Below, one piece after another: positions 25,762 through 51,087 of a DNA stretch of 64,000 nt; the stretch's first letter is position 1; each line of letters begins with the position of its first letter. A model generated the notes under the pieces. That model worked only from the letters and a program-made list of their open reading frames with translations, did not search any database and was not told the DNA's origin. The stretch spans positions 6,067 through 70,066 of the forward strand of contig JAHFGV010000005.1 in assembly GCA_023247255.1 (NCBI GenBank), given 5' to 3'. A program made the position numbers and the translations under genes. The stretch is from Candidatus Omnitrophota bacterium. Lineage in GTDB: Bacteria > Omnitrophota > Gorgyraeia > Aquiviventales > Aquiviventaceae.

Positions 25762-25848
25762 GCTCGCTTTTGACTTGACGAACCACGAGCTTGTTAATAA
25801 GATGAAACACGCGATGGGTCGACAGGGTGTTGTGAGGAGCCGTCCAGC

Positions 25849-26925: not shown

Positions 26926-28118
26926 GTCTCGTCGCGGCGCTTACGCTCGGAGAATCAGCGTGGGCAACGATCGAGAACCTCAAAAGCTACAAGGCAGCCT
27001 ATCCCGATAAAGATCCCAAGGCCTATTCGTGCAAGGCCTGCCACGAGGGCCTCATCGGGAAGAAAGACAACCTCAACGCCTATGGTCTCACCTTGCAGAA
27101 GTTCAAAGTGGATGCCGGGGCGAAGAAATTGACCGAAGAAGATTTTCGGGCGTTCGAGGCTGCGGATGCTGATGGGGATGGCGCCTCCAATCTTGATGAG
27201 CTGGACGCGGGCACTGATCTGAATGATCCCACGTCCGTGCCGGAGGGCGCTGGGCAAACGCCAGAAAAAAAAGAAGAAAGCCCAGGCACTGAGCAGCAGA
27301 CAAGCCCTCCAGGCGGCGCGTCGCAACTGAATCCAGGGACACTGAAACAGTTGCAGGCCTACCTGGAGGAGCAGATCGTCCCAGACGTTCAAGCGGCGCC
27401 AGAGGAATCGTCAGTGTCTAGGCGGCATGACGACAAAACAGCGTCCAACGCCAAATCCTCCCAACCCGAACAGGCTGAGTACGTGGGGATGGAGACCTGC
27501 GCGATGTGTCATAACAAGCAGCACCAGGAATTTCTCCACTCAACCCATGCCAGGATCGCAATCCCCGGAGAGACCAAGGCGCAAGGTTGTGAGACCTGTC
27601 ATGGGCCCGGCAGTCTGCACGTTGCTGCCGGTGGCGGTCGTGGCGTCGGTGGGATTATCAATCCGAAGAAGGATCCCGGCGCCTGTTTTGCCTGTCACCT
27701 CGACAAGAAAGCGGAATTTCGTTTGCCCCATCACCATCCCGTGATGGAAGGCAAGATGAGTTGTGCGGATTGCCACAATCCCCACGGTGAGGATGTGCGG
27801 CCGTGGTCAGCGACGACGCTGAAGGATATCAATGAGGCCTGCTTTCGGTGCCACAAGGAACAGCGCGGCCCATTCGCCTGGGAACACGAGGCGCTGCGGG
27901 AAGGTTGCACGACCTGTCACAAGGTTCATGGCTCGATTCACGAGAAGATGCTGCTCGTCCGGGACAACAACTTGTGCCTGCGCTGCCATACGCAGACGAA
28001 CTTCCCGACCATTGGCAGGTCCAGCCATGCTGGCCGGCTTCCCCAAGGGACGTGCTTTAGCGCGGGATGCCATACGGCGGTTCACGGATCGAACTTCGAC
28101 GATCACCTCCGCTACTAA
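26892..28118 (+). CDS. periplasmic multiheme (8-9 heme) cytochrome c with acidic Ca-binding-like N-terminal linker
   Basis: Signal peptide MPIRRGLLVGVSLVAALTLGESAWA. Eight CxxCH motifs plus one CxxxCH (CFSAGCH). A DADGDGASNLDELDAGTDLNDP TSP3-like acidic repeat lies after heme 1. Confidence 0.75.
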   Translation: MPIRRGLLVGVSLVAALTLGESAWATIENLKSYKAAYPDKDPKAYSCKACHEGLIGKKDNLNAYGLTLQKFKVDAGAKKLTEEDFRAFEAADADGDGASNLDELDAGTDLNDPTSVPEGAGQTPEKKEESPGTEQQTSPPGGASQLNPGTLKQLQAYLEEQIVPDVQAAPEESSVSRRHDDKTASNAKSSQPEQAEYVGMETCAMCHNKQHQEFLHSTHARIAIPGETKAQGCETCHGPGSLHVAAGGGRGVGGIINPKKDPGACFACHLDKKAEFRLPHHHPVMEGKMSCADCHNPHGEDVRPWSATTLKDINEACFRCHKEQRGPFAWEHEALREGCTTCHKVHGSIHEKMLLVRDNNLCLRCHTQTNFPTIGRSSHAGRLPQGTCFSAGCHTAVHGSNFDDHLRY

Positions 28119-28130
28119 AGGAGACGCCTC

Positions 28131-30191
28131 ATGCGCGCGATGCTTTGTTGGACGTTGGGAGGAATTCTGGGTGTGAGTCTATGGTTACCCTCACGCCTTG
28201 CTGAGGCTGCGGACCCGGAGGTTTCCCTTTCCCTGGAGCCCATCCGTTATGCGTTCGTCAATGGCGACCGGGATAAGTTTAGCGCCCATCATTGGATGAA
28301 AGACAACTACGTCGGAGGCGTGAAGGAGTTTTCCTTCGACTACGCCCTTGCGGATGGAACGCAGCTCTCCGCAGAAAGCCACGCGCTCATTGATCAAAAC
28401 GATTTGGGCGCTGACGTCTCACTTAAGAAAGACTCACTGGGCTTTTTCAATCTCGGCTACTCCGAATTCCGCAAGTATTACGATAAAACCGGTGGTGTGT
28501 ACTATCCGTTTACCACCCTTCGCAGCAACGATACGTTTAAGGACCTTGCTCTGGACATCGGTCACCTCAGCCTTGAAAGCGGGTTGACCCTGGAAGGCTG
28601 GCCTGACCTGACCTTCGAGTACGAGCGCGAATTCAAGGATGGGGCGAAATCGCGCCTGAGCTGGGTCCCAACGAAGGAAGGGACCACCACCCGGAATATC
28701 GGTCCCTCGTGGCAAGATCTTGATGAGGTCGTCGACTCATTTGGCCTCAAAGCCGATCATGAGATCGCAGGATTCACTCTCAAGGGCGAGCAGCGATGGG
28801 AGTTCGTGCGGACCGAAACCTTTCGGGAGGAGAAATTTCTCGCGACAACAGGTGTCGCAGCAGACACCAAGATTCGACGGCAGGACCAAGCCCCGCAAGC
28901 CACCTTGATGACGACGACGTTAGGCGGGGAGCGTTCGTTCTTCGCTGACAAGATATTTACATCGATGGGCTACCATTTCGCCCACATGGATAATCGGGAA
29001 TTCGAGACAATCGTCGAGTCGAACGCGGCTGGAACCGTAACAAACTTTTCGAATCCGAAGCAGATCCGTAATGCGCGCGCCGATAACGACTACGATACCC
29101 ATACCTGGGTAGGGAACTTCATGATCAACCCCTGGAACTGGCTGAGCCTCGGGACCAAACTCAAGGCTGAAGCGATTCACCGGGAGAGCGACTCAAGCTA
29201 TCCGGCGGATGCCTCGCCGAACTCCACGGGCGGCAGCACCCCGAATGGGGCGATCGACTCTCTCGTGGCCAGTCTCAACAAGAACAAGGCCGTTCGCTGG
29301 GGGGAAGGAGTGTCCCTGCGGTTTTTTGGCATCCCACGCACCGCTCTCTACACTGATTTGGAGTTGGAGCAATCGCGAGTAATCTTGGCAGAGGATCGGA
29401 AAGATTTAGTGACGATCCCGAATGTCAACGAGGATTTCAGCCGCTACACTGTCACCAACGTCCGACGAGGGACGTGGACATTGGGCGGCCATGTCGCGCC
29501 GGGGTCGTTCCTCGATCTGACGACGCAGGTCCGGCGACGTGTCAACAACAACGACTACGATGACCAACGGGAAACCGTCGCCTCAGGGACGGCGCTGTCC
29601 GCATTCGTCGATATGCAGAACATCCATACGGATGAGTTCACCACGCGGGCCACGCTGCGGCCCTCTCGGTGGTTTCGCCCCTCGTTCCGGTACCAGTTCC
29701 GTAACGATAAATATGCGACTCGGACGGAAGCGCAGGATACCGTAAAGACGGGTATGCTCTCGAACATCTACACTTTTGACGTAACGGCACAACCGTTGCG
29801 AGACCTCACGACCACCGCCTCCTTCTCGCGTCAGACGGCCGTCACCACCACTCCCGCGGGTTCGGCGTCGTCAGCAAACGTTCCTGGGTTTCGCGCAAAT
29901 GTCAACACGTGGCTTTTCAGCACCGACTACAGCCCAAGGGCGAATGTGAGTATCACCAACGCGCTGCTCTATTCGCGCGCAAGAAACTTCAACGATTTTA
30001 CCGCCAGCGGGATGCCGTTCGGGACCTCGTTTGATCGGCTGGATGTGACCACAGGTCTGAAGTGGGCGCTGACCGAGGATACGTCTGTTGGCACCGAATA
30101 CGCATTCTACTCGTATCTGCCCAATTCGCTGACCGAAGTGGGCGACTACCATGCCCACGTCATCTGGCTCGAGTTGTCGAAGCAGTTTTGA
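28131..30191 (+). CDS. putative outer-membrane beta-barrel (porin partner of the preceding cytochrome, MtrB/PioB/MtoB-like)
   Basis: 686 aa with a signal peptide, alternating amphipathic beta-strand patterns and an aromatic C-terminus ...HVIWLELSKQF. Gene order cytochrome then barrel matches mtrAB/pioAB/mtoAB. No sequence comparison was possible. Confidence 0.45.
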   Translation: MRAMLCWTLGGILGVSLWLPSRLAEAADPEVSLSLEPIRYAFVNGDRDKFSAHHWMKDNYVGGVKEFSFDYALADGTQLSAESHALIDQNDLGADVSLKKDSLGFFNLGYSEFRKYYDKTGGVYYPFTTLRSNDTFKDLALDIGHLSLESGLTLEGWPDLTFEYEREFKDGAKSRLSWVPTKEGTTTRNIGPSWQDLDEVVDSFGLKADHEIAGFTLKGEQRWEFVRTETFREEKFLATTGVAADTKIRRQDQAPQATLMTTTLGGERSFFADKIFTSMGYHFAHMDNREFETIVESNAAGTVTNFSNPKQIRNARADNDYDTHTWVGNFMINPWNWLSLGTKLKAEAIHRESDSSYPADASPNSTGGSTPNGAIDSLVASLNKNKAVRWGEGVSLRFFGIPRTALYTDLELEQSRVILAEDRKDLVTIPNVNEDFSRYTVTNVRRGTWTLGGHVAPGSFLDLTTQVRRRVNNNDYDDQRETVASGTALSAFVDMQNIHTDEFTTRATLRPSRWFRPSFRYQFRNDKYATRTEAQDTVKTGMLSNIYTFDVTAQPLRDLTTTASFSRQTAVTTTPAGSASSANVPGFRANVNTWLFSTDYSPRANVSITNALLYSRARNFNDFTASGMPFGTSFDRLDVTTGLKWALTEDTSVGTEYAFYSYLPNSLTEVGDYHAHVIWLELSKQF

Positions 30192-30634
30192 TGTGTCCTC
30201 GTCAGCCCCTCAGTCGCCGGGTTTTCCTGGCGCTTTGCCTCAGGGGTGGTGGGCTTGCCCTGCTTGGGGCTGCGCTCTATCCCATCCTGCGGTATCTCTA
30301 TCCTCCCCGAGGCGTTGAATCCTCCGTCTCCAGCGTTGCGGCGGCGAAGGTGGGGGATCTGGCGACGAATACCGCGAAGATCTTCCGGTTCGGCAGTCGG
30401 CCCGGCCTCCTCATTCGTTCCCCCCAAGGCGAGCTCAAAGCCTTCTCGGCGGTGTGCACCCACCTCAACTGCACCGTTCAGTACGACAGCGACGCGAGCA
30501 TCATCTGGTGCGCCTGCCACAACGGCAAGTATGACTTAAACGGACAGGTCATCTCCGGCCCTCCCCCACGACCACTCGATGCCTACCAGGTGAACGTCCG
30601 CGGAGAAGACATCATCGTCTCCAAGACGTCCTAG
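30191..30634 (+). CDS. Rieske [2Fe-2S] protein
   Basis: TAT-like SRRVFLALCL. Rieske boxes CTHLNC and CACHNGKYD. About 147 aa. ATG overlaps the upstream stop. Confidence 0.8.
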   Translation: MCPRQPLSRRVFLALCLRGGGLALLGAALYPILRYLYPPRGVESSVSSVAAAKVGDLATNTAKIFRFGSRPGLLIRSPQGELKAFSAVCTHLNCTVQYDSDASIIWCACHNGKYDLNGQVISGPPPRPLDAYQVNVRGEDIIVSKTS

Positions 30635-30638
30635 CCTG

Positions 30639-31709
30639 ATGGGGTACTTCGAGCACCTACGCGCATTCTTGCATGAGCGCTACCGGCTGGGTGGCCTAGT
30701 GGATCTCGCCACGCATAAGACGGTCCCCATCCACCGCCACAGCGTCTGGTACTACTGGGGCGGCATGACGCTCGTGCTCATCGGCATCCAGATCATCAGC
30801 GGTGTGCTGCTGTTGCTGTACTACCGCCCATCAGCCCAGGAAGCCTTCGAGTCGGTTCGCTTCCTCATGACGCGGGTGCAATTCGGGTGGCTGGTGCGCT
30901 CCGTGCACGCGTGGGCGGCGAACCTGGCGATCTTCTGCGCGATGGTGCATCTGGCCAGCGTCTTTTTCCTGAAGGCGTATCGGCCACCCCGTGAACTGAC
31001 CTGGGTGACCGGGGTTGTGTTGTTGTTTCTGCTATTTGGTTTCGGATTTACCGGCTACCTCCTGCCGTGGAATACGCTGGCGTTTTTCGCCACCAAGGTC
31101 GGCACGGAAATCGCGGGGATTGTGCCCGTCGTCGGGCCTGTCGTTCAAATCTTTCTGCGCGGTGGAAGCGACGTTGGGGATGTGACGATCACGCGGTTCT
31201 TTTGGCTTCATGTCGCAATCCTGCCAATCGGCCTGATGACACTCTTAAGCCTTCATCTGCTCATGATCCAGCTCCAGGGCATGAGCAAACCGCCTTGGGT
31301 TAAGAGCAATCGGTCCATGCCGTTCTTTCCGAATTTTTTCCTGCGCGATCTGGTTGCCTGGTCACTCATACTGGGGATAGTGCTGTGTGTGAGCGTGCAC
31401 TGGCCCGCGACGCTCGGCGAAAAGGCCGATCCGTTCGCTCCGACACCCGTGGGCATCCAACCGGAATGGTATTTTCTCTGGATGTTTCAGACGCTCAAGA
31501 TTTTCCCTGGCCACCTGTTTGGTCTCGAGGGTGAGTTAGTCGCGGTGGGATTGACCGGACTGGCGGGTCTTGCGCTGCTACTCGTTCCATGGCTGGATCG
31601 CCCCGCCCGACGGGAGCAATCATCCTGGCTGGTATGGGCTGTTGGCGTGTTGGGCATTGCCTATGTCGTCGGGATGACCGGCTACGCGCTATGGGTGAAA
31701 CCTCACTGA
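30639..31709 (+). CDS. cytochrome b (fused b6 / subunit IV type)
   Basis: 356 aa. His ligands lie in TM helices (VHAWAANLAIFCAMVHL, WLHVAILPIGLMTLLSLHLLMIQ). PEWYFL motif present. Confidence 0.85.
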   Translation: MGYFEHLRAFLHERYRLGGLVDLATHKTVPIHRHSVWYYWGGMTLVLIGIQIISGVLLLLYYRPSAQEAFESVRFLMTRVQFGWLVRSVHAWAANLAIFCAMVHLASVFFLKAYRPPRELTWVTGVVLLFLLFGFGFTGYLLPWNTLAFFATKVGTEIAGIVPVVGPVVQIFLRGGSDVGDVTITRFFWLHVAILPIGLMTLLSLHLLMIQLQGMSKPPWVKSNRSMPFFPNFFLRDLVAWSLILGIVLCVSVHWPATLGEKADPFAPTPVGIQPEWYFLWMFQTLKIFPGHLFGLEGELVAVGLTGLAGLALLLVPWLDRPARREQSSWLVWAVGVLGIAYVVGMTGYALWVKPH

Positions 31710-32995
31710 TGACAGGGTATCGTCTACGGGTGGCACTCGGACTTCTGCTGTGCCCTGGCTTTGTGTGGTCGGCTGAGAAGCCGAATAGTTGTGTCGAGTG
31801 CCACAAGCAGGTGGAGGGCCAAACGCGAGGGCCGGCCACACTGGCTGCAGAGGACGTGCATTTCCAGCGAGGCTTGTCCTGCGTGGATTGCCATGGCGGC
31901 GATCCAACAGCGATGGATCCTCAAGCCGCGATGGACCCGGCTAAAGGGTTCCTCGGTCGCCCGAGGCGGGAGCAGATTCCCCAGTTTTGCGCCCGGTGCC
32001 ACGCGGATCCGGCCACCATGCGCAAGTACAATCCCAATCTTCCGACTGACCAATACGCGAAGTACCTGACCAGTCAGCACGGGAAGCGCTTCAGTGTTGG
32101 CGATGCCGATGTGCCGGTCTGCATCAGTTGCCACGAGGCGCACGGCATCCGCTCGAAAAAAGACCCAGCCTCGCCGGTCTACCCGACGAACATCCCCGGA
32201 ACCTGCGCGAGCTGCCACAGCGACGCGTCGATCATGGACAAACACGGCTTGCCGGTGAACCAGCACTGGGACTACTCGCAGAGCGTCCACGGCCAGGCGC
32301 TGTTGTTCCGTGGCGATCGTGCGGCTCCCCATTGCGCGAGCTGCCACGGATCGCACGAAGCGGCCAAACCTAGGACGGTCGCAATCGGCAACGTCTGCGC
32401 TCAGTGCCATAGCCTCACGCGCGATCTGTTTGCAAAGAGTCCCCACAAGGCCGCGCATGAAGCCTTAGGGCTTCCGGAGTGCGAGGTCTGCCACGGCAAT
32501 CACCTGATCCGCAAGCCAAGCGACGAGATGCTTGGGACGGGACAAGATGCGGTGTGTGTCAGTTGTCACGAGCCAGGGTCGACCGGCTACGTCACCGCGC
32601 AGCAGATGCGCAGCGCCATCGAGCAACTGAAAACCCACATGGCCAGCGCTGAGGCAGCCGTCAGGCACGCAGCGGAGTTGGGCATGGATGTCGGTGACGC
32701 GGAATTTGAGCTTCGCGAGGCGATGACCCAACTCACGCAAGAGCGCACCTACGTCCACTCTTTCTCCGCCGCAACCATGGAACCCATTGCCGAGGAGGGA
32801 ACTCACCACGCCCTGCGGGCCGAGGGGCAAGCCCGCCAGGCGATCCGTGAGTTTCATTTCCGCCGTCAGGGCTTGTGGGTCACCCTGATCATTCTCGCCC
32901 TCGTGGTTTCTGGACTCCTTCTGAAGATTCGAGACTTGGAGCGATCGGACTCGACAGACAAGATGGACGACACATCCCCTCGCGACTCCTCGTAA
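31709..32995 (+). CDS. multiheme (about 9 heme) cytochrome c with C-terminal membrane anchor
   Basis: Signal peptide, then nine CxxCH motifs and a C-terminal TM helix WVTLIILALVVSGLLLKI. Start overlaps the cytochrome b stop. Confidence 0.75.
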   Translation: MTGYRLRVALGLLLCPGFVWSAEKPNSCVECHKQVEGQTRGPATLAAEDVHFQRGLSCVDCHGGDPTAMDPQAAMDPAKGFLGRPRREQIPQFCARCHADPATMRKYNPNLPTDQYAKYLTSQHGKRFSVGDADVPVCISCHEAHGIRSKKDPASPVYPTNIPGTCASCHSDASIMDKHGLPVNQHWDYSQSVHGQALLFRGDRAAPHCASCHGSHEAAKPRTVAIGNVCAQCHSLTRDLFAKSPHKAAHEALGLPECEVCHGNHLIRKPSDEMLGTGQDAVCVSCHEPGSTGYVTAQQMRSAIEQLKTHMASAEAAVRHAAELGMDVGDAEFELREAMTQLTQERTYVHSFSAATMEPIAEEGTHHALRAEGQARQAIREFHFRRQGLWVTLIILALVVSGLLLKIRDLERSDSTDKMDDTSPRDSS

Positions 32996-33032
32996 AATCT
33001 GCCATTTCCGGCTATGATATCTGCGGAGCATC

Positions 33033-34550
33033 ATGAACCACACATCGATGCCAAAACCCCCCAGCCTCTTGCGCAACCCGCTGAGCTTTTTCGGCCTCGC
33101 CGTCGCCATCACGAGCACGGCGTTTGGCCTGCCCATGATGTTCGTCGACATGTTCAGTCGACGCACGCATCCGTATCTTGCTGTGCTCGTTTATCTCGTG
33201 CTGCCGTTCGTTGCAGCAGGCGGCGTCGGCTTAGTCCTGCTTGGAGCATTGTGGGAACGCCGTCGAAGACGCCGACGGCCTGGCATGGTAGTGCCACCCC
33301 TGCCATCCATCGATCTCAATCGAAGCGCCCACCAGATTGCTGTGGCTGGAGCACTCACAACGTTCATGACTATTGTGGCCATGCTCTCCGTGACCGGCTA
33401 CCGGGCGTACCACTTTACGGAGTCGGTCAAATTCTGCGGCCTGGTCTGTCACCAGGTGATGAAACCGGAGTATACGGCGTATCAGTATTCTCCGCATGCG
33501 CGCGTGGCCTGCACCCAGTGCCATGTCGGGCCTGGTGCAAGCTGGTTCGTGCGCTCAAAGATCACAGGAGCGTATCAGGTTTACGCGGTTACATTCAACA
33601 AGTACCCGCGCCCGATTCCCACACCCGTGAAGAGCCTGCGTCCGGCGCAAGAAACTTGCGAGCAATGCCACTGGCCGGCGAAGTTTTTTGGCGCGCAGCA
33701 GAAAACCTTCACGCACTACATGGCGGATGAGCACAACAGCCCGTGGCAGATTCAGATGCTGCTGAAAATCGGCGGCGGCGATCCGTCGGTTGGCGCTCCT
33801 GCGGGCATTCACTGGCACATGAACATCAAGAACGATATTTATTACATTGCCTCAGATGAGCAGCGGGAAACCATTCCGTGGGTGCGCGTGGTCGAGCCGC
33901 AGGGACGCATCGCCGAATATATGTCGATGGAAAGTCCGCTCTCGCCGGAGCAGATCGTAAAGAGCGAAGTGCGCCGCATGGACTGCGTGGATTGCCACAA
34001 CCGGCCCTCCCACATCTTTCGACCGCCGGATCGTGCGGTGGAGGAGGCCTTCGAGACCGGCCGGCTAGAGCGGTCCCTGCCGTATCTGAAGCGCGAAGCC
34101 ATAAGGTTGTTGGCGCAAGAGTACCCCTCGGAGGAGCAGGCGTTATCAGCCATCCTGAAAGGCTTGGCCGAGTTCTACCAGAAGGACTATCCAGAGGTGT
34201 ATCGCGAACAGGCAGTCGCTATTCAACAGGCCACAGCTGAGTTGCAACGCATCTATTCGAGGAATTTCTTTCCCGAGATGCGCGCCGATTGGCGCGCCCA
34301 TCCCAACCACATGGGCCATCTAAATGCCGAAGGCTGCTTCCGCTGCCACGATGGGCTGCACAAAAACCGCGAGGGCAAGGTGCTAACCAAAGACTGTACC
34401 GCCTGTCACACGATCTTGGCCCAGGGGCCACCTGAGGAGGTGGCGCAAGCCAAGCTTGAAGCGCAGCCGTTTCGCCACCCGGTCGACGTGGGGATGGACG
34501 TGACGGAATTTAAGTGCAGCCAGTGTCATACCGGCACGAGCGGTCTCTAG
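33033..34550 (+). CDS. inner-membrane heptaheme cytochrome c (NapC/NirT-superfamily, ImcH-like)
   Basis: Three N-terminal TM helices followed by seven CxxCH motifs. 505 aa. Confidence 0.6.
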   Translation: MNHTSMPKPPSLLRNPLSFFGLAVAITSTAFGLPMMFVDMFSRRTHPYLAVLVYLVLPFVAAGGVGLVLLGALWERRRRRRRPGMVVPPLPSIDLNRSAHQIAVAGALTTFMTIVAMLSVTGYRAYHFTESVKFCGLVCHQVMKPEYTAYQYSPHARVACTQCHVGPGASWFVRSKITGAYQVYAVTFNKYPRPIPTPVKSLRPAQETCEQCHWPAKFFGAQQKTFTHYMADEHNSPWQIQMLLKIGGGDPSVGAPAGIHWHMNIKNDIYYIASDEQRETIPWVRVVEPQGRIAEYMSMESPLSPEQIVKSEVRRMDCVDCHNRPSHIFRPPDRAVEEAFETGRLERSLPYLKREAIRLLAQEYPSEEQALSAILKGLAEFYQKDYPEVYREQAVAIQQATAELQRIYSRNFFPEMRADWRAHPNHMGHLNAEGCFRCHDGLHKNREGKVLTKDCTACHTILAQGPPEEVAQAKLEAQPFRHPVDVGMDVTEFKCSQCHTGTSGL

Positions 34551-34627
34551 GCCTGCCCGCCTGTCGTCCAAAAGTGTGATCTGGGTCATAGTTCGTCTCC
34601 CTGCGTTCTGAGAAGATTACTTAGGCG

Positions 34628-36183
34628 ATGGGGGAGGCTCTGACGAGAAACGGCGGACGGATACGGCGCGTAGCGCTCTGCGCGCTCTTCACGTGCTGGA
34701 CCTGGGCGCCGCGGGCCATGGGAGAGGGCAGCGTCTCTCCAGCCGCGCAAGAGATCGACAACGCTGCCTGTCTGGCTTGCCATGGTGATCCCTCGGCAAT
34801 CCGCTTTGTGGACCACGCGAAGTTCGAGGCTTCCGTCCATGGGAGTTTTTCCTGCACTACCTGCCACGCGGATGTCGTCACCATTCCCCATGACGTGCCG
34901 CTGGAGTCGATCAGTCAGTCGCAGATCCCCCTCACGTGCGGCCAGTGCCATGAAGACATCAAGGCTGCCTACCAGCGGAGTATCCACGCTCAGGCGGTCG
35001 CCGCCGGCAAGCGCCATGCGCCCGTCTGCACCGACTGCCATGGTGAGCACTATGTGGCCCCGGTGAAAACGGAGGCGTCGAAAGTGTTTCCCTCGCACAT
35101 CCCGCAGACGTGCGCACAGTGCCACGCGGCGGAGCGCATCGTTACGAAGTATCGGTTGCCGGCGTACGTGGTCGATACGTACATGAGCAGCTTCCACGGC
35201 CTCATACACCAACTGGGATCCGTGACGGCCGCGAACTGCGCCTCCTGCCACGGGGCGCATGACATTCTCCCCGCGAACGACGAGCGTTCCTCGGTCAATC
35301 CGAAGAACCTGCCGAAAACCTGTGGCTCCTGCCATCCGGGCGTCGGCGCGTTCGTCGCACAGGGAAAGATTCACTCCGGCACACAGCCCGGAGCGGAACA
35401 TCCTGCGGTGACATTCGTTCGCCGGTTCTACCTCATCCTCATCGGTTTGGTCATTGGGGGCATGCTGATTCACAACGGTCTCGATTTCCGCAAAAAACTC
35501 TCGATCCATTACCAACGGATGGCCGCCAGCAGCGCGGTACAACGGATGAGTCTTAATGAGCGCCTTCAACATGGCGTGCTCTTGATCGCCTTTGCGACGC
35601 TCGCCTATACCGGATTTGCGTTAAAGTTCCCGCATGTCTGGTGGGCACGCCCCTTCATGGGCCGCGTCGACTGGCGCCGCCTGGGGCATCGGGGAGCGGC
35701 GGTCGTCTTCTGCCTGCTCGCCGGCTACCACCTCTGGTTCATGACGTGCACGAAACGGGGGCGGAGCGAGTTGCGCGCCTTGCGACCCGAACGAGCCGAC
35801 TTCACGCACCTGAGACGGATGCTCGGCTTCTATCTGGGTAGGAGCCGGGAGCAGCCGCGCGCGGCGCGGTACAGCTACGTGGAGAAAGCGGAGTATTGGG
35901 CGCGGTCTGGGGTTCAGTCATCATGGTGCTCACCGGCGGTCTGATGACCTGGCAGAATTGGACATTGCGCTTCCTGCCCAAGTGGGCGTTCGATGTTTTT
36001 ATCACGGTGCATTTTTATGAAGCACTCCTCGCATGCTTGGCGATCCTTATTTGGCACCTCTACTTCGTCATGTACGATCCCGATGAATACCCGATGAAGT
36101 GGACGTGGATCAGCGGCAAGGCCTCACCCACCGACGAGGCACATCGGCATCCAGGCGACGCCGAGGAAGGCAATCCAGGCTGA
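34628..36183 (+). CDS. CbcL-like fusion of a heptaheme cytochrome c with a FdnI/HydC-type di-heme cytochrome b (interrupted by a frameshift near 35897)
   Basis: Seven CxxCH motifs, then TM helices with conserved His (RFYLILIGLVIGGMLIHNG, HGVLLIAF, HRGAAVVFCLLAGYHLW). The reading frame shifts -1 at the tattgggcgcgg G-run and continues as VWGSVIMVLTGGLMTW ... HFYEALLACLAILIWHLYF. Confidence 0.6.
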
Positions 36184-36269
36184 ATCCTCTAAGACTTAAC
36201 GCCGTGTTGGCGCAAAAACATACCTCGGAGGCGCAAACGTCCTCTGTATGATAAAATAGAAACCTTGCC

Positions 36270-38051
36270 ATGACACCCTTCGTCCGATTCCTTGGATCGC
36301 TGAGCATCGCGGTGCCGCTGCTGATCGTGATTGCCCTGGTGCTCGCATGGGGCACCATCTATGAAACCCGCTTTGGCACGGCGGCGGTTCAGCGCTTTGT
36401 CTACCACGCGTGGTGGTTTCAAGCGCTCCTCGGCTTTCTGGCGATCAACCTCGCCGTGGCTGCGCTCGAGCGCTATCCGTGGCAGCGTCGACACCTGCCG
36501 TTTGTCCTGGCCCACATCGGCATCATCCTCATCCTGATTGGGGGGATTATCGGAGCCCGATTCGGCATCGAGGGTCAGATGATCATTCCGGAAGCTCAGG
36601 CCGAGCGCGTCCTCGAGCAGCCAGGCAATGTCCTTGTAGTGCGCCAGCCAAACCCGGGTCTATCTATCATCATCCCCACGCAGTTTGAAACGCAGGCCTG
36701 GGTGCATGAGCCGAACGCGACCTTTCCCGTGACTCTCGATGGCCGGACGATTGCGCTCACCGTCGACCGCTACTATCCCGACGCGGTGACGGATGAAGAA
36801 ATCACAAGCGGTGGCGCTGAGGACAATCCGGCTCTCCACATGCTGCTTACGCACAACGAGCAGCAGGATGCGGTGTGGCTCATGAGCAGGGACTCTGAGC
36901 GTTTTGGTATGGGCTGGGGTGAGGCGCACGTGCTCTTCCTTGAACCAAGAACTGCTTCTGAAGTCGATCGGCTTACTGGGGCTGGGCGCTCACCTGGCGT
37001 CGCGTCTGCGCGAGGCGTGATCGTTATCCGCCTACCCGGGATGCATGCGCCACGCGAGATTCCGGTTCCCGATGAGCGCAACCGATCCGTCGACGTCACA
37101 GGCACGCCCTATCAGATCATCTTCAAGGATTACTTTCCCGATTTTGCGATTACCGAACAGGGGATCGTGAGCCGCTCGCTTGAGGCCAATAACCCTGCGG
37201 TTTCTTTCATCATCACCGGACCCGAGGGAACCGATGCGTATTTGCTGTTTGCGCTCCATCCCGATTTTCAAACGATCCATGGCTTCGAACATAAGATCGA
37301 CGCCCAGGTGAGTTATACCCACACCGCCAGCGCTGCGCTGCCTCCCAATTGTATCGGGCTCATCCGTGCACCATCAGGAACCTTAATCGGTATCTTGACC
37401 GGCAGCGGGACCGATCGATCCGTGATCAATCCGCTGGAACTTGGCAAACGGTACACCCACCCTTCGCTCGGCTATCAGTTTGAAGTCGCCACGTACTATC
37501 CCCGTGCGGTTCTCACGCAGCACGTCACCAACCGAGGAGATGAAATCAAAGCCGAAACGCTTCATCTCGTGGGACGTGAAGGTGATCAGAGCGCAGAGGC
37601 GTGGTTGGGTTTGCGCGGCTCGGCAGAATTCGCGTTGGGAAAGGAGCCGGTTACGATTGAGTACCGACCGGCCCGATGGGAGCTGCCGTTTACCATCAAG
37701 CTCTTGGACTTTCGCAAGATCGACTATCCAGGAACGCAGATGGCCTCGGCGTTTGAAAGCGACGTGGAGCTCACCGATTCTCAGCGGGGTGTCATCCTGA
37801 TGCGCAAGATTACGATGAACAACCCCCTGCGCTACCGCGGGTTTAGCGTGTACCAATCCAGCTACATCGAAGGCCCGACGGAAACCACAGTGCTCTCGGT
37901 GCGCAATGATCCAGGAACCCCATTTGTTTATGCGGGGTTCATCATTGTGATCGCCGGCGTCGTCAGTATGTTTGTGCTCGGCACCCCCTCCACGACCGCA
38001 ACCCCTCCGCCTTCGATCCGGCGAGTACGCAGAAGGAGCCGCTCTTCATGA
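36270..38051 (+). CDS. ccsB: cytochrome c biogenesis protein ResB/CcsB
   Basis: 593 aa with N-terminal TM helices, a large soluble domain and a C-terminal TM. ResB-like. Confidence 0.8.
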   Translation: MTPFVRFLGSLSIAVPLLIVIALVLAWGTIYETRFGTAAVQRFVYHAWWFQALLGFLAINLAVAALERYPWQRRHLPFVLAHIGIILILIGGIIGARFGIEGQMIIPEAQAERVLEQPGNVLVVRQPNPGLSIIIPTQFETQAWVHEPNATFPVTLDGRTIALTVDRYYPDAVTDEEITSGGAEDNPALHMLLTHNEQQDAVWLMSRDSERFGMGWGEAHVLFLEPRTASEVDRLTGAGRSPGVASARGVIVIRLPGMHAPREIPVPDERNRSVDVTGTPYQIIFKDYFPDFAITEQGIVSRSLEANNPAVSFIITGPEGTDAYLLFALHPDFQTIHGFEHKIDAQVSYTHTASAALPPNCIGLIRAPSGTLIGILTGSGTDRSVINPLELGKRYTHPSLGYQFEVATYYPRAVLTQHVTNRGDEIKAETLHLVGREGDQSAEAWLGLRGSAEFALGKEPVTIEYRPARWELPFTIKLLDFRKIDYPGTQMASAFESDVELTDSQRGVILMRKITMNNPLRYRGFSVYQSSYIEGPTETTVLSVRNDPGTPFVYAGFIIVIAGVVSMFVLGTPSTTATPPPSIRRVRRRSRSS

Positions 38052-39709
38052 AACGCGCCTTTATGACGATTATGACGATGGCGTTATTGTTCGGAGCCTT
38101 GGCGAGATTTATGAGCGTATTCGCAGATCAGCCCGTTGCCCTGCCGCGCGAGGCGCTCGAGACCATACGTCGCATGGCCATCCAACACAATGGACGCAAC
38201 AAACCCTTCGACAGCTTTGCGCGAGAAACCCTCCGACTCATCACCGGCTCAGCGCGCGTGGGAAATGAAGATCCTGTCGAAACCATCTTGACCCTCATGG
38301 CCAGTCCCGACCATGGGCAGCAGTTGCTGCTTGTGTCGGTTCCATTTATCCCTCTGCGAAAGGCTCTGGGCATGGATCCCAAGGCGACGCAGGTGTCCTA
38401 CAACGATTTGGTTGCGACACGCAAGCTCATGCGGCTGCTGCCCCCGATTGTCCAAAAGCAGCAGCGCGAAGAGAAACTTTCGATGCTGGAAGAAGAGACG
38501 ATGGATGTCTTCCAGCGATTTGCCACCCTGAGCACTCTGCTCGAGCAAAAGCTCAACCTCGTGCCTCCACCTGTTGGATCTGCAGAGCGTGTGTGGCAGC
38601 TTGTTGAGGAGCCGTCGGGCTATGCGCCAGCGCAGCAAGAGACCATTCGTACCGCATGGTCCGGGCTGATCGGTGCGGTGCAAGCTGGGCGGGGCGATGC
38701 GGTGATTACCTCAGCGCGTCATGCGGCAGATGCGCTGCGAGATCTGAGCCCTTCTCGCTATCCTCCTCGGTGGCGATTAGCGTTCGAGGTGTTCTACAAC
38801 CACGTCGCGCCATTTCGAATCGCCCAAGGGTTCTATCTGCTCTCAGCGATCCTGTTGTTTCTGAGCCTTGGCGCATTGAAGAAATTCCGGCCAGCGCTTT
38901 TGGGATTTGTCGCTTGCTGCTTCGCGTTTCTCGCGCATGGATCAGGTATCCTGATGCGCGTTGTTCTGGGTGAGCGTCCGCCGGTCTCGAATTTTTTTGA
39001 GACCACGCTGTGGCTGCCGTTCGTCGCAGTCGCCATTGCGCTCATCCTGGAACGTGTGTACCGGACTCGTTACATCGCCCTGGCTGCGGCGATCCTTGCG
39101 ACAATCACCCTGGTTCTCGCGGATCATCTGCCGCTGGACTCGAGCATCTCTCCGGTGGTCGCCGTGCTCCACAGCAATCTCTGGTTGACGATTCACGTGT
39201 TGACCATCGTGGCGAGCTACGGCGCGCTGACCCTGGCGATTGTGCTGGCGCACATGTATGGGGGGATGTACCTGAGTCGCCGCACGAGCGGCTCAACGTT
39301 AGATGCGTTGGGGACATTTCTCTATCGCGTCATCCAAGTCGGCGTCGTGTTATTGGCGGCGGGGATCATGCTGGGCGCCGTGTGGGCCAACGCCTCTTGG
39401 GGCCGTTACTGGGGCTGGGATCCGAAAGAGACCTGGGCGTTGATTACCCTCATCTGGTTCCTGGCGCTGCTGCACGGACGCTTCGCCGGATGGATCAGCG
39501 GTGTTGGCGTAGCCCTGTGCACCGTCGGCGGATTTTTTCTGCTGCTGATGACCTACTACGGTGTCAGCTTCTATCTCGTCGGTCTGCACAGCTATGCCGG
39601 TGCTCATGCCAAGCCCTTGCCCCCAGTTCTCATCGCCTACCTCATCGCTGAACTGGCGTTCATCATCGTGGTGAGCGTCTCAGCCATACTCCGCAGGCGG
39701 CCAGCGTAG
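38048..39709 (+). CDS. ccsA: cytochrome c biogenesis protein CcsA/ResC
   Basis: WWD motif WANASWGRYWGWDPKETWAL. 553 aa with a long N-terminal extension. Confidence 0.85.
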   Translation: MKRAFMTIMTMALLFGALARFMSVFADQPVALPREALETIRRMAIQHNGRNKPFDSFARETLRLITGSARVGNEDPVETILTLMASPDHGQQLLLVSVPFIPLRKALGMDPKATQVSYNDLVATRKLMRLLPPIVQKQQREEKLSMLEEETMDVFQRFATLSTLLEQKLNLVPPPVGSAERVWQLVEEPSGYAPAQQETIRTAWSGLIGAVQAGRGDAVITSARHAADALRDLSPSRYPPRWRLAFEVFYNHVAPFRIAQGFYLLSAILLFLSLGALKKFRPALLGFVACCFAFLAHGSGILMRVVLGERPPVSNFFETTLWLPFVAVAIALILERVYRTRYIALAAAILATITLVLADHLPLDSSISPVVAVLHSNLWLTIHVLTIVASYGALTLAIVLAHMYGGMYLSRRTSGSTLDALGTFLYRVIQVGVVLLAAGIMLGAVWANASWGRYWGWDPKETWALITLIWFLALLHGRFAGWISGVGVALCTVGGFFLLLMTYYGVSFYLVGLHSYAGAHAKPLPPVLIAYLIAELAFIIVVSVSAILRRRPA

Positions 39710-40157
39710 CGTTCTCGCCTTCTTCCCTAAGGGATCATGCGCCCAAGGAATTCTCATCTCCTCTTTATCCTTGACCTCCTCTACGGCACATCTTAGTTGT
39801 CCAGCCGACAAAAGGTCTCCATGACGTTCGTCATGGAAGACTCTTATCCGGAGCCGCTATCCTCTTTTTCATGACACATCCGTGAATCACGGCTACAAAT
39901 GGCCGACTTGCTGACGATAAGGTCGTTTCTCACAAAGTTCACACCCTGTGAACATTGTGAGAGGTACGTTACCGTCGACGAAGCGTGAAATTCCCGCCAG
40001 GTTTGCAACGGAGCTGTCCGGGAAGCGAGGCCGCTCCGACGAGACAGCGGTTGCCTTCGAACTCAATGTTCCCGGTTCCGTACGGTTTTGCAACACTTCT
40101 CGCTCCGCCATCGACGAGGAGCAGCGTAACTCAGACGCGATTCAGGACATAACACAG

Positions 40158-40214
40158 GACTCATGAAACAGACGTGAGCACTGCCACTAACCTCGATGCA
40201 TTTTGTAAAACCCC
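40158..40214. repeat. 57-bp element shared with the nuoJ upstream region (2645-2699)
   Basis: gactcatgaaacagacgtgagcactgccactaacc(t/g)cgatgcattttg(t/a)aaaaccc. Two mismatches over 55 bp. Confidence 0.5.
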
Positions 40215-40291
40215 AGTTACGACTGACGCCTTCCAAGTCTTCTTGCACCTGCTGTAGTGAATCCATCTGCTGCAGCGAATCTCGCGAAAGG

Positions 40292-42250
40292 TTGACAGGC
40301 TTGTCTGGCCAGCGTCACACGCCGAGCCTCATCGTAACCGGCAACCCCAACGTCGGGAAAAGCGTCATCTTCCAGCTCCTCACCGGCCGCTACGCCACCG
40401 TGTCGAACTATCCGGGCACCACGGTTGCAGTTACCCGAGGATCGGCTTCGTTAGACGGCCGGGTGGTTCGCGTCTACGACACGCCAGGAATCAATAGCTT
40501 GTTCGCCGCCTCAGAAGATGAGCTGGTCGCACGCGATCTGCTGCTGGGTGAACGAACCACCGTGGTGCAGGTTAGCGATGCCAAGAACCTGCTACGTGCC
40601 CTCACACTGACCTTGGAACTGGCTGAAGCTGGACTTCCATCCGTCCTGGATCTGAACATGATGGACGAAGCCAGGGAACGTCGAATCAGCATTGATACGA
40701 AGAAGCTCTCAGGGTTACTTGGGATCTCGGTTGTGCCGACCATTGCAACGCAGCGGTGGGGTATCGAGCGGTTGCGTCGAGTGATCCTGCAGGCACAGCA
40801 GGCTCGGGTTGGCGTTTGCTACCCCAAAGTGATTGAAGATGCCATTGCCAAGATGGTGGAGGTCCTACCAAAGACGCTGGGCGTACGGAAAGCCCTGGCG
40901 TTGTTCTGGCTTGCTGGGGATCGGAACATCATCGAGCAGCTCAAGAAGCAATTCGACCCATCAATCATCGAGGCGCTGACGGCAATCGCTGCGCAGGCTC
41001 AAGAACAGACCTCTGGCCCATTAGGGTTGCTGATCAGTCAAGCCCGACTCCGCGAGGCCGAGCGACTCGTCAAGCAGGTGATGACGACTGCACCTCTGGA
41101 GCGCCAGCGGTGGTTTTACCGCCTGGGTGATTGGGCGATGCACCCGGTTTGGGGGGTGCCCATCCTCGTTGGCGTCCTGGTCATGATGTACTTCCTCGTC
41201 GGAAATCTCGCAGCTCAGCGTGGCGTAGATTTCCTAGAAGACGTGGTCTTTGGGCGCTACCTCACCCCAGTCTTTCAGTGGGTTGTTCAAGGGGCGATCC
41301 CTTGGGGGTGGCTCAAGGCGCTCTTCATCGGTGAGTACGGCCTGCTGACGATGGCTCTGCCCTACGCTTTTGCGATCATCCTGCCCATCGTGGGGATGTT
41401 CTTTCTCTGCTTCGGATTGCTTGAGGATGTGGGCTACCTTCCTCGACTAGCCGTGATGGCCAATCGCTTTTGTCGGCTCCTGGGTCTCAACGGCAAGGCG
41501 GTGCTCCCACTCGTGCTGGGGTTGGGATGCGACACAATGGCCACGATGACCGCCCGCATCCTCGACTCGGATCGGGATCGGATCATCACAACGCTCTTGT
41601 TGGCACTCGGCATCCCTTGTTCCGCTCAACTGGGCGTCATCCTAGCGATGCTGGCGGGCCGCCCGCCGTTGGCCCTGGGGATTTGGCTTGGCGTGTTACT
41701 CATGGTGATCATTGTGGTTGGTCAAGCCGCGTCAAGAATCCTGCCGGGCGAGGAGAGCCCGTTTCTCTACGAGATCCCACCGCTTCGCACGCCGAAGCTG
41801 TCGAATGTGCTGATCAAGACGCTGGGTCGCATCGAGTGGTATGTGAAAGAAGCCGTCCCGCTGTTCTTCCTGGGAACCCTGGTGTTATTCCTCCTCGATG
41901 TGACAGGAGCCCTGGCGGTCTTCGAGCGAATCGGGACCCCGCTCATTGTCTCGTGGCTCGGGCTGCCAGCCAAAGCGACCAGTGCATTTCTGGTGGGATT
42001 TCTCCGACGGGATTTTGGTGCGGCCGGGCTCTTCGCGCTTCAGCGAAACGGAATGTTATCTGGAGTCCAGACCGTCGTCAGCCTCGTTACCATCACGCTG
42101 TTTGTCCCCTGCATCGCCCAGTACTTCATGATGGTCAAAGAGCGCGGCTGGAAACTCGCAAATCTGATGGCGGGGTTTGTCTTCGGGATGGCGCTGCTTG
42201 TTGGAGGTCTCCTCTTGCGCGTTCTCACCCTGTTGCGAGTTACCCTATGA
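40292..42250 (+). CDS. feoB: ferrous iron transporter FeoB
   Basis: G-domain LIVTGNPNVGKSVIF, DTPG, then a polytopic permease domain. Likely TTG start at 40292. The annotated ATG at 40196 lies inside the repeat. Confidence 0.85.
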   Translation: MTGLSGQRHTPSLIVTGNPNVGKSVIFQLLTGRYATVSNYPGTTVAVTRGSASLDGRVVRVYDTPGINSLFAASEDELVARDLLLGERTTVVQVSDAKNLLRALTLTLELAEAGLPSVLDLNMMDEARERRISIDTKKLSGLLGISVVPTIATQRWGIERLRRVILQAQQARVGVCYPKVIEDAIAKMVEVLPKTLGVRKALALFWLAGDRNIIEQLKKQFDPSIIEALTAIAAQAQEQTSGPLGLLISQARLREAERLVKQVMTTAPLERQRWFYRLGDWAMHPVWGVPILVGVLVMMYFLVGNLAAQRGVDFLEDVVFGRYLTPVFQWVVQGAIPWGWLKALFIGEYGLLTMALPYAFAIILPIVGMFFLCFGLLEDVGYLPRLAVMANRFCRLLGLNGKAVLPLVLGLGCDTMATMTARILDSDRDRIITTLLLALGIPCSAQLGVILAMLAGRPPLALGIWLGVLLMVIIVVGQAASRILPGEESPFLYEIPPLRTPKLSNVLIKTLGRIEWYVKEAVPLFFLGTLVLFLLDVTGALAVFERIGTPLIVSWLGLPAKATSAFLVGFLRRDFGAAGLFALQRNGMLSGVQTVVSLVTITLFVPCIAQYFMMVKERGWKLANLMAGFVFGMALLVGGLLLRVLTLLRVTL

Positions 42251-42359
42251 TTCCACCACCTGTGTGTTGGCCGCAGGCCGGGCGCTGGCGTGGCACGCGG
42301 CCCCCTCGATGGAGCCAGCGACCGGTTTCGCCTTCGGCGAAACCATATAGTGTGGTAGG

Positions 42360-42563
42360 ATGACCTGTCCGCTCTGCGGCTTTGCCTTCGGAGAGAGGGA
42401 GCAAACCTGGGCTTGTCAGCGTTGCCCCTTGGCGTCCGGCTGTCGACTTACCCGCTGCCCACGATGCGGCTATGAGTGGGCAGAGGAATCACGGTTGGTG
42501 AACTGGCTCAAAGAGCGCTGGCGTATCCTCGAACGCCCCAACGGTCATGACGATCCATCGTGA
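42360..42563 (+). CDS. small zinc-ribbon protein
   Basis: 67 aa with two CxxC pairs (CPLCG ... CQRCP ... CPRCG). Confidence 0.35.
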   Translation: MTCPLCGFAFGEREQTWACQRCPLASGCRLTRCPRCGYEWAEESRLVNWLKERWRILERPNGHDDPS

Positions 42564-45365: not shown

Positions 45366-45367
45366 CC

Positions 45368-49521: not shown

Positions 49522-49541
49522 CGAGATGAGGCGTGTGAGCG

Positions 49542-49818
49542 ATGCCGTATAAGGAACCCGAACCGGATGATCCTTTGGAGCTGACGGGAGTCGTCCTACC
49601 TGCTTCGGACGAGACGTCACTGAAGGAAATGGCCGTGTGTTTCGTCGAAGAGTTCCTGCGCGACGGCTGGTCGGATGAGCAGCTTCGTGCGATGTTCCGC
49701 AATCCCTACTACCGAGGTCCCTACCTCGTGTGGCGGCAGAAGGGCGATGCATACGTGGAGGCTGTGATCCAGGAAGTCCGTCACATCTGGCGCCCCAACG
49801 CAGCCGGAGGAGCGACTC

Positions 49819-49826
<8 letters not shown>
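49542..49826 (+). CDS. small hypothetical protein translationally coupled to nxrB
   Basis: 94 aa. Stop overlaps the nxrB start by 8 nt. No recognisable family. Confidence 0.35.
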
Positions 49827-51057
<1,231 letters not shown>

Positions 51058-51087
51058 ATTTTGCTGCGCAACATTTATTAACCGGAT

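Follow-up and report, generated by a model that had tools for sequence, protein, structure and literature searches.

Adjacent ImcH-Family and CbcL-Type Cytochrome Genes in a Probable Respiratory Cluster of Omnitrophota, with a Missing T Private to One Assembly

Two neighboring genes at positions 33033–36183 of a 64,000-nucleotide stretch of DNA from a Candidatus Omnitrophota bacterium (contig JAHFGV010000005.1; the whole stretch is herein referred to as the window) raise the question of whether this organism carries, side by side, relatives of the two quinone-pool gateways that Geobacter encodes separately, and whether the second gene, which changes frame before its end, is broken in the organism or only in the assembly. 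We find that the locus as a whole is best explained as an Omnitrophota respiratory or extracellular-electron-transfer cluster that includes an ImcH and CbcL-type pair and in which a missing T is private to the assembly, and we put the probability of this reading at roughly 0.8. The phylum is also borne out by AtpD: of the 120 matches listed, those that carry names come almost entirely from Candidatus Omnitrophica or Omnitrophica WOR_2 (81–88% identity). The pair and its neighbors from 26853 to 39709 lie on the plus strand.

The first gene (33033–34550) encodes a protein of 505 aa that had been described, from the sequence alone, as a NapC/NirT-like cytochrome with three transmembrane (TM) helices and seven haems, and reading frame, hydropathy, motifs, and profile match all agree with this description. 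Hydrophobic segments occupy residues 20–38, 51–69, and 102–120; the first haem motif is a CX3CH (C135GLVCH) and is followed by CX2CH motifs at 160, 209, 318, 435, 455, and 495; and the NapC/NirT N-terminal region of Pfam (PF03264) matches residues 105–191 with 35.4 bits (cut-off 24.1). Three TM helices with a CX3CH beside TM3 and six CX2CH motifs constitute the published layout of ImcH (Levar 2014, PMC4251993, fig. 1; Zhong and Shi 2018, PMC6295460), and the protein has every published sequence feature of that family, namely a length within ~495–519 aa, three N-terminal TM helices, the CX3CH beside TM3 plus six CX2CH, NapC/NirT/NrfH homology over TM3 and the first haems, and, by positional mapping, the residues of the haem-1 pocket. 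The likeness to ImcH of Geobacter sulfurreducens (GSU3259), drawn through published coordinates and residues, extends to length (507 aa, vs. 505 aa here), to three N-terminal TM helices (13–35, 45–67, and 100–122 in GSU3259; table S3, PMC6295460), to a CX3CH directly after TM3 with six CX2CH behind it, and to the NapC/NirT/NrfH-like region; the motif offset between the two proteins is +3 for haems 1–3 and grows to +9 at the last haem. The pocket residues singled out in GSU3259 by Pimenta et al. (E127, H137, K173, Q179, and Y188) all have counterparts in the window protein at a constant offset of +3 (E130, H140, K176, Q182, and Y191), of which H140, K176, and Q182 do not vary in alignment A2.

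By these sequence criteria gene 1 is an ImcH-family cytochrome, as the sequence-only reading had supposed, and the presence of such homologs in Omnitrophota is already known: 505-aa proteins of Omnitrophica WOR_2 were catalogued as ImcH homologs in 2018 (PMC6295460). Locus A3I71_03655 (OGX46065.1) is likewise listed as an ImcH homolog, and the window protein shares 77% identity with P0140, a protein with a source name beginning A3I71_03. Homologs outside Geobacter share 31.5–49% identity with the Geobacter clade (PMC6295460). The two systems differ in genomic context: in Geobacter, a monocistronic imcH lies at a distance from cbcL, whereas the window gene stands in a long same-strand cluster directly 5' of the CbcL-like gene. 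NrfH of Desulfovibrio vulgaris (2j7a chain C) is likewise a membrane-anchored, quinol-interacting multihaem cytochrome and aligns to residues 112–236 (PDB sequence search, E 1.4e-4); however, it has one TM helix, four haems, and NrfA as a partner, in contrast to the three TM helices, seven haems, and initial CX3CH of the window protein, which has no nrfA beside it.

The second gene (34628–36183) is deposited as an upstream frame of 438 aa (34628–35944; P0001 in NCBI/ENA) that ends in 20 out-of-frame codons and a stop, and it continues in the -1 frame as a 95-aa ORF (35896–36183) that encodes TM helices 4–5 of a b-type domain, the histidines H462 and H477, and a tail with the conserved sequence DPDEYPMKWTW. 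In its intact form (518 aa; P0121), the product consists of seven c-haems (CX2CH at 48, 76, 104, 134, 162, 204, and 232), a linker TM helix, and a four-helix dihaem b domain of the FdnI/HydC type. Several results show that the two frames carry the halves of one such domain, as had been proposed from the letters alone. The Ni_hydr_CYTB profile (PF01292) is split between them (profile positions 2–106 in the 438-aa ORF and 111–164 in the 95-aa ORF) and becomes contiguous over residues 307–483 of the intact protein, with 51.1 bits (cut-off 30.1). An alignment to FdnI (1kqf_C) also spans the frame junction and brings H18, H57, H155, and H169 of FdnI onto the invariant H315, H354, H462, and H477, so that the downstream frame supplies two of the four haem-b ligands. 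The AlphaFold2 model of an 80% homolog retrieves FdnI as its best PDB fold (Foldseek, 1kqf_C, probability 1.00) and HyaC thereafter; its helices fall at 245–284, 295–319, 335–360, 403–427, and 438–469, and hydropathy likewise gives five TM helices, with a hydrophilic stretch of 37 residues at the C-terminus. Sequence searches of the PDB with the proteins of the locus had NrfH, FdnI, and a 278-aa "Cytochrome c" (28pb_A) as their sole matches.

CbcL of G. sulfurreducens (GSU0274), like the window protein, joins a periplasmic multihaem c domain at its N-terminus to a dihaem b membrane domain of the HydC/FdnI type at its C-terminus, and the intervals between the last four haem motifs nearly agree (28, 42, 28 in the window vs. 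28, 43, 28 in GSU0274). The seven periplasmic CX2CH motifs lie within the range of the CbcL/MtrH/MtoC family (3–23), and the ligand histidines that the family conserves in its TM helices are present as well. The window protein departs from GSU0274 in being 518 rather than 619 aa long, with seven rather than nine c-haems and five rather than six TM helices, the C-terminal sixth helix being absent; six helices are found in GSU0274 and in most listed members of the family, and the published list includes a few members with four or five. Its gene further departs from Geobacter cbcL in adjoining imcH and in carrying a 1-nt deletion. The nearest relatives are Omnitrophota proteins with 11 haems, and the clade of the window protein has lost a four-haem block. 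Compared with FdnI, the gamma subunit of formate dehydrogenase-N in Escherichia coli, and with HyaC, the shared element is the four-helix dihaem bundle, in which all four FdnI ligands align; FdnI, however, is a stand-alone subunit that accepts electrons from a Mo/FeS enzyme and passes them to menaquinone, whereas in the window an extra TM helix links the bundle to the multihaem c domain. Gene 2 thus has the CbcL/MtrH/MtoC architecture, in line with the earlier proposal; because it has seven haems and five TM helices instead of nine and six, orthology to Geobacter CbcL is unproven, and the gene may represent a separate subfamily.

What interrupts this gene can be located to a single base. A T is missing between C35903 and G35904 (codons GCG C[T]G GTC, Ala-Leu-Val), within the Leu codon of the conserved segment E-Y-W-A-L-V-W-G-S, so that the site reads GCGCTGGTC with the T and GCGCGGTC without it. 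The intact 518-aa protein is a cluster sibling of the 438-aa product of the window and was used to reach the contigs that encode it; a search for contigs encoding the 438-aa product itself gave no matches. The T is present, and the encoded protein intact, in three independent assemblies with >99.9% identity to the window (L002, L003, and L004). The alignment to L002 runs over 13.8 kb at 99.95% identity with the missing T as its only indel, alongside six true SNPs, and L004 is the same as the window over 2.4 kb, including the window allele at 35997, save for the T. A relative with 80% identity (L001), in which the frame is also uninterrupted, reads GCG TTG GTA at the site, and A425 and L426 show almost no variation in alignment A1. 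The lesion is private to the window assembly, and the gene of the population is intact at 518 aa. The sequence-only reading had put the frame change at 35897 in a run of G and had seen in it either a recent pseudogene or a homopolymer assembly error. It was right that the frame changes near 35900, that the string it quoted (35894–35905) contains the site, and that the choice lies between pseudogene and assembly error, but the GGG at 35898–35900 is not the site; since what is lost is a T flanked by C and G, in a nonrepetitive context, we rejected a homopolymer error in the G-run.

Between the two remaining origins of the lesion, an error of assembly or consensus is somewhat the likelier. A real and very recent loss-of-function allele, which would leave ImcH and the bc complex as the gateways of the quinone pool, has slightly less than an even chance in our estimate: the missing base lies outside any homopolymer and is therefore not in a classic sequencing-error context, single-base deletions of this kind being untypical of short-read errors; the six SNPs that separate the window from L002 indicate strain-level variation in the population; and the 438-aa product is the one given in the deposited annotation. 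Against such an allele stand the intact gene in three independent assemblies, including L004, which has the window allele at 35997 and over 2.4 kb differs only by the T, as well as a downstream fragment free of further decay and the lack of a second broken gene among the ~40 window ORFs checked. Further frameshifts, which would have pointed to an assembly prone to indels, were also sought, and the overlapping same-strand ORF pairs checked proved to be separate genes. That the split is itself functional, through a programmed -1 ribosomal frameshift or through two polypeptides assembling into one bc cytochrome, is highly improbable. The frames do overlap by 49 nt (35896–35944) and a GGAG lies just 5' of the TTG at 35896, but the GGAG is only 2 nt from that TTG, the break would interrupt TM helix 4, which is helix 3 of the FdnI-like bundle, and every aligned homolog, like the same population elsewhere, has one ORF through E-Y-W-A-L-V-W-G-S. 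We rejected programmed frameshifting because these relatives are continuous and the overlap holds no slippery site (no X XXY YYZ heptamer in 35842–35944).

The pair is one part of a larger cluster. Upstream lies an MtrA/DmsE-family multihaem cytochrome (26853–28118, likely start near 26892) that contains eight CXXCH motifs and one CX4CH and resembles the NCBIfam DmsE-family decahaem model TIGR03508 (E 2.2e-47, with 161.7 bits falling short of the 192.2 cut-off) as well as the GSU2203 family (1.8e-46). It is followed by a 686-aa secreted protein (28131–30191) with a signal-peptide-like N-terminus and a C-terminal SKQF, without a match in Pfam or NCBIfam, which may form an outer-membrane barrel that partners the MtrA-like cytochrome; a related locus (L006) has a 63%-identical gene in this position. 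Profile matches and motifs then mark a Rieske protein, a fusion of cytochrome b6 with a subunit IV-like domain, and a membrane-anchored cytochrome c with nine haems (30062–32995 together; likely Rieske start near 30191, fusion at 30639–31709, cytochrome c to 32995), and the pair is thus directly downstream of a bc complex, as the sequence-only reading had it. ResB/CcsB and CcsA genes of system II cytochrome c maturation follow (36270–39709; Pfam ResB 9.5e-31, Cytochrom_C_asm 1e-30, TIGR03144 1.5e-46). The order cytochrome b, multihaem cytochrome, imcH, cbcL is common to L001, L005, and L006. A scan of 25500–40500 for promoters and terminators returned sites no commoner than in shuffled sequence and is hence uninformative on operon boundaries.

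The adjacency of the two genes had been taken as remarkable, but a scan of GTDB suggests that it is widespread. Of 80 species-representative genomes with an imcH-like gene, spanning several phyla, 52 have a CbcL-like gene on the same strand no more than 1.5 kb away; these 80 loci are the best-scoring matches listed, mostly from Acidobacteriota and with neither a Geobacter locus nor the genome of the window among them, so the resulting 65% is not an unbiased frequency. Gene order among these matches follows lineage, with cbcL before imcH in Acidobacteriota, Ignavibacteriota, Bacteroidota, Zixibacteria, and "Binatia" and imcH before cbcL in Omnitrophota and Kiritimatiellales, and the paired genes are often linked to a Rieske/cytochrome b/multihaem complex and to MtrA-like cytochromes. 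Among the best-scoring matches listed, then, a CbcL-type gene usually adjoins imcH outside Desulfuromonadia, which makes the separate arrangement in Geobacter the exception. Nothing specific on this adjacency, or on extracellular electron transfer in Omnitrophota, was found in the literature searched, and the 2018 survey reported no mtrAB adjoining imcH (PMC6295460), whereas an MtrA-like cytochrome and putative barrel lie ~5 kb upstream of imcH in the window.

By analogy with Geobacter ImcH, the ImcH-like protein would oxidize menaquinol beside haem 1 on the periplasmic face, releasing protons to the periplasm and passing electrons along its seven c-haems to periplasmic carriers. The CbcL-type protein, with two b-haems predicted on H315/H477 and H354/H462 of the FdnI/HydC-like bundle within its five-helix membrane domain, would wire the quinone pool to its periplasmic seven-haem domain. 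The pair stands between the Rieske/cytochrome b/multihaem complex and the CcsBA haem-attachment genes; we infer the direction of electron flow, the partners, and the physiological substrate from homology. An alternative function, which we regard as unlikely, would make the two proteins quinol dehydrogenases for a periplasmic reductase (NrfH/NapC-like, for nitrite or nitrate, or Nxr/Nar-like) rather than gateways to extracellular electron transfer. Residues 105–236 of the ImcH-like protein resemble NapC/NirT and NrfH, a periplasmic type II DMSO-reductase cluster with an Nxr/Nar-like enzyme lies 8 kb downstream of the pair (43767–52801), and CymA of Shewanella serves several periplasmic reductases (PMC6295460). 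However, the NrfH model TIGR03153 gives 55.7 bits (cut-off 134.2) and reaches no farther than the first three haems, the cluster ORFs scanned contained no match to an NrfA or NapA family, the Nxr-like cluster has a cytochrome c/EB_dh subunit of its own, and the immediate neighbors of the pair are the MtrA/DmsE-like cytochrome, the putative barrel, and multihaem cytochromes. The assignment to NrfH/NapC that the sequence-only reading had allowed for as a challenge to the electron-transfer interpretation was accordingly not what we obtained.

Because three other assemblies of this population have the T, the frame change is a largely ordinary finding, and the 438-aa and 95-aa ORFs should be annotated as one gene, broken by the loss of a single T that the rest of the population retains. 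For metabolic reconstructions, this organism should not be scored as lacking a CbcL-type quinone gateway unless the reads have been checked. More tentatively, the pairing across genomes raises the possibility that ImcH-like and CbcL-like proteins form a conserved two-gene module, perhaps cooperating as a physical complex or as a coregulated high- and low-potential pair on one transcript; if so, the two independent, separately encoded gateways of Geobacter would be a derived special case.

Genes 1 and 2 are a real and correctly recognized pair of known cytochrome families: motif, profile, alignment and fold evidence confirm the adjacent ImcH-like and CbcL-like cytochromes of the sequence-only reading, and ImcH homologues had already been catalogued in the host phylum. 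The imcH-like gene (33033–34550, + strand; ORF table and sequence) encodes a 505-aa protein with three hydrophobic segments (residues 20–38, 51–69 and 102–120), one CX3CH motif (C135GLVCH) and six CX2CH motifs. Published ImcH proteins have 495–519 aa, three N-terminal transmembrane (TM) helices and, around TM3 and the first haems, homology to NapC/NirT (PMC4251993; PMC6295460), and gene 1 agrees with every one of these features (length, TM helices and NapC/NirT homology), in keeping with its earlier description as a NapC/NirT-like protein with three TM helices and seven haems. The type protein GSU3259 of Geobacter sulfurreducens has 507 aa, as against 505 in gene 1, with motifs at positions 132, 156, 205, 311, 428, 448 and 486, whereas three 505-aa proteins of Omnitrophica WOR_2 have them at 135, 159, 208, 317, 434, 454 and 494 (PMC6295460 Table S3); on that table's numbering, gene 1 shows the Omnitrophica pattern. 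In GSU3259, H137 and Q179 have been highlighted as ligands of haem 1, and three protonatable residues, E127, K173 and Y188, as conserved (Pimenta et al., bioRxiv 10.1101/2023.05.03.539133); mapped from these coordinates at a +3 offset, gene 1 has H140, Q182, E130, K176 and Y191, and H140, K176 and Q182 are invariant in an alignment of 15 diverse homologues. Judged by this comparison of published coordinates and residues with GSU3259, gene 1 is a member of the ImcH family. The NrfH/NapC assignment that the sequence-only reading named as weakening its electron-transfer interpretation is not borne out, and gene 1 is not an NrfH because the NrfH equivalog model gives only 55.7 bits, far below its cut-off of 134.2. 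Homology searches place proteins labelled Candidatus Omnitrophica or Omnitrophica WOR_2 nearest to both the ImcH-like and the CbcL-like protein, and among the 120 matches listed for the ATP synthase beta subunit of the window, named relatives almost all carry the same labels (81–88% identity).

The CbcL-like gene follows after a 77-nt gap and is divided between a 438-aa ORF (34628–35944, +), which contains seven CX2CH motifs, and a 95-aa ORF in the -1 frame (35896–36183, +), which overlaps its end. Positions 2–106 of the Pfam Ni_hydr_CYTB profile match the tail of the 438-aa protein and positions 111–164 the 95-aa ORF, so one domain is split over two frames; indeed, the separate fragments score 27.3 and 17.4 bits, each under the gathering cut-off of 30.1, and the intact 518-aa form (P0121) scores 51.1 bits contiguously over residues 307–483. 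Residues 299–484 of the intact protein align with Escherichia coli FdnI (1kqf_C), in which H18, H57, H155 and H169 are the four haem-b ligands of the Fdn-N structure; these align with H315, H354, H462 and H477, each invariant among the aligned CbcL-like proteins. An AlphaFold2 model of an intact homologue, 80% identical (P0002; mean pLDDT 76.6, and 86–96 over most of the membrane helices), has FdnI as its best PDB fold match (probability 1.00, TM-score 0.53 on the target) and hydrogenase-1 cytochrome b HyaC among the best. The claimed fusion of seven c-haems to an FdnI/HydC-type dihaem b domain is thus upheld by profile, alignment and fold; with a linker TM helix joining the multihaem c domain to the FdnI/HydC-type dihaem b bundle, gene 2 has the architecture of the CbcL/MtrH/MtoC family, whose members have 3–23 haems, 416–1034 aa and, in most cases, six TM helices (Zhong & Shi, PMC6295460).

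The CbcL label itself holds for architecture only. The type protein GSU0274 has 619 aa, nine haems and six TM helices (PMC6295460 Table S3), whereas gene 2 is shorter, has seven haems and lacks the C-terminal helix, the P0002 model showing five long helices and no sixth; the two are alike in how their membrane helices and last four haem motifs are spaced. Most close relatives have 620–650 aa and eleven haems, and gene 2 lacks, at residues about 95–97, a block of ~124 alignment columns (about 115–238) that holds four CXXCH motifs and is retained by the majority of the family. The block is also absent from a small clade (P0002-4, P0024, P0032 and P0054), and on this alignment its loss is what took 11 haems to 7 in the clade of gene 2. 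From its fused layout, gene 2 is therefore predicted to work like a CbcL-type protein; it is a candidate orthologue of Geobacter CbcL that departs from two of the strict CbcL features.

The lesion in gene 2 falls between 35842, from which the downstream frame is open, and 35944, where the upstream frame reaches its stop. A search with the repaired gene 2 sequence returned the truncated 438-aa product (P0001) and many full-length relatives, in which a conserved E-Y-W-A-L-V-W-G-S motif runs uninterrupted across the junction. The 90% cluster of P0001 has P0121 as a second member, which is identical to the two window fragments joined at ...EYWALVWGS...; three contigs, each from a separate sample or assembly, carry the P0121 gene (ENA ERZ27280021, SRR14366787 and SRR14366783). 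By BLASTN, the near-identical contig L002 matches the window over 13,801 nt at 99.95% identity, with six substitutions and one gap; L003 has one substitution and L004 none, each with the same gap. The gap is a T after 35903, present in all three (GCG CTG GTC) and missing from the window; the 80%-identical relative L001 reads GCG TTG GTA here. The missing base is therefore a T within a Leu codon. The proposed change of frame stands but its placement in a G-run, at 35897, does not, neither GGG (35898–35900) nor GGGG (35909–35912) being affected. The statement that the downstream frame encodes the conserved b-type helices also holds, as Ni_hydr_CYTB positions 111–164 and both H462 and H477 fall there.

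The missing T is a single-base, non-homopolymer deletion private to this assembly. We consider an assembly or consensus error its most probable origin, at a probability of roughly 0.55. Three other assemblies encode an intact gene 2; L004, which has the same allele as the window at the sole nearby SNP (35997), differs from it solely by the T; the downstream fragment shows no further decay; and no other broken gene was found among the window ORFs scanned. All four points speak for an artefact or a minor variant. A real variant is a somewhat weaker but serious contender, given that the site is not a homopolymer and that SNPs exist in the population, although the four points above count against it. 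Of the six substitutions that separate L002 from the window, four are non-synonymous; they lie at 36487, 36840, 36894 and 44149, three of them affecting ResB and one the cytochrome c/EB_dh protein. A programmed frameshift or functional split is most improbable, as the overlap of the two frames contains no slippery heptamer. If the deletion is real, the 438-aa product would lack two helices and, because H462 and H477 lie past the frameshift, half of its b-haem ligands, and would be unable to hold two b-haems.

From hemA (25849) to ccsA (39709), every gene lies on the + strand with gaps of at most 86 nt; a promoter and terminator scan of the cluster was uninformative. As previously proposed, the pair lies downstream of a bc complex, and the order cyt b, multihaem, imcH, cbcL, resB, ccsA is common to L001 and another imcH-like locus (L005). 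In the 356-aa cytochrome b (30639–31709), a b6-like domain at the N-terminus is followed by a C-terminal part resembling subunit IV; ExtP and ExtQ, from the selenite/tellurite ext cluster of Geobacter, are among its best NCBIfam matches, and the nine-haem protein after it has a weak ExtM match. Some 5 kb upstream of imcH (26853–30191, +) lie an MtrA/DmsE-family multihaem cytochrome, with eight CXXCH and one CX4CH motifs, and a 686-aa protein without a Pfam match, which may be an outer-membrane barrel given its signal-peptide-like N-terminus and C-terminal ...SKQF. Whereas a 2018 survey reported no mtrAB adjacent to imcH (PMC6295460), the window and Omnitrophica WOR_2 GWA2_63_20 (L006) both have this pair, the latter in the same order (hemA, mtrA-like, barrel, cyt b, multihaem, imcH) up to its contig end. 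FeoB and a DtxR-type iron-dependent repressor fused to FeoA (40196–43254) lie directly downstream of the cytochrome/CcsBA cluster and hemA directly upstream of the cytochromes, so that genes for iron uptake, haem synthesis and cytochrome maturation flank them. Farther out are a periplasmic Nxr/Nar-like type II DMSO-reductase cluster (43767–52801) that encodes a fusion of a dihaem cytochrome c with an EB_dh haem-b domain, the molybdopterin (1207 aa) and 4Fe-4S subunits, a NarJ-like chaperone and a DUF2490 protein, and a DDE_Tnp_4 transposase gene (21135–22136) between the ATP synthase/CitMHS transporter region and the regulator/hemerythrin/hemA/cytochrome cluster.

The adjacency that the sequence-only reading found noteworthy is ordinary outside Geobacter. 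One ImcH-alignment scan of species-representative genomes gave 80 loci, the best-scoring part of its matches and so a biased sample, labelled Omnitrophota, Acidobacteriota, Verrucomicrobiota, Kiritimatiellales, Ignavibacteriota, Bacteroidota, Zixibacteria, KSB1, Dadabacteria and 'Binatia'. TBLASTN with the b domain located a same-strand CbcL-like gene within 1.5 kb of imcH in 52 of these 80 (upstream in 49, downstream in 3) and one within 10 kb in 61; 11 is the usual haem number of the partner, and at many loci an MtrA-like gene or a Rieske/cyt b/multihaem set is present as well. Pairing is clearly common despite the bias. Most Acidobacteriota loci have an 11-haem cbcL-like gene followed at 120–340 nt by imcH, Omnitrophota and Kiritimatiellales have the reverse order, and partners with 19 haems occur at some loci of Zixibacteria, KSB1 and unclassified ('bacterium') genomes. 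Geobacter is the exception, since imcH is monocistronic in G. sulfurreducens (PMC4251993) and its locus tag, GSU3259, is widely separated from that of cbcL, GSU0274.

By analogy with work on Geobacter, the ImcH-like protein would oxidize menaquinol close to haem 1 at the periplasmic face, release protons to the periplasm in an electroneutral reaction and pass electrons through seven haems to periplasmic carriers, and the CbcL-type protein would link the quinone pool through two b-haems to seven c-haems; in Geobacter, the CbcL route has a lower potential and a lower energy yield. The MtrA-like cytochrome and putative barrel may offer electrons a path across the outer membrane, with an external substrate reduced or oxidized. 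Literature searches returned no description of imcH–cbcL pairing, and the wider interest is limited to one point: together with the bc-complex and MtrA-like genes near it, the pair seems to form a conserved module undescribed as such.
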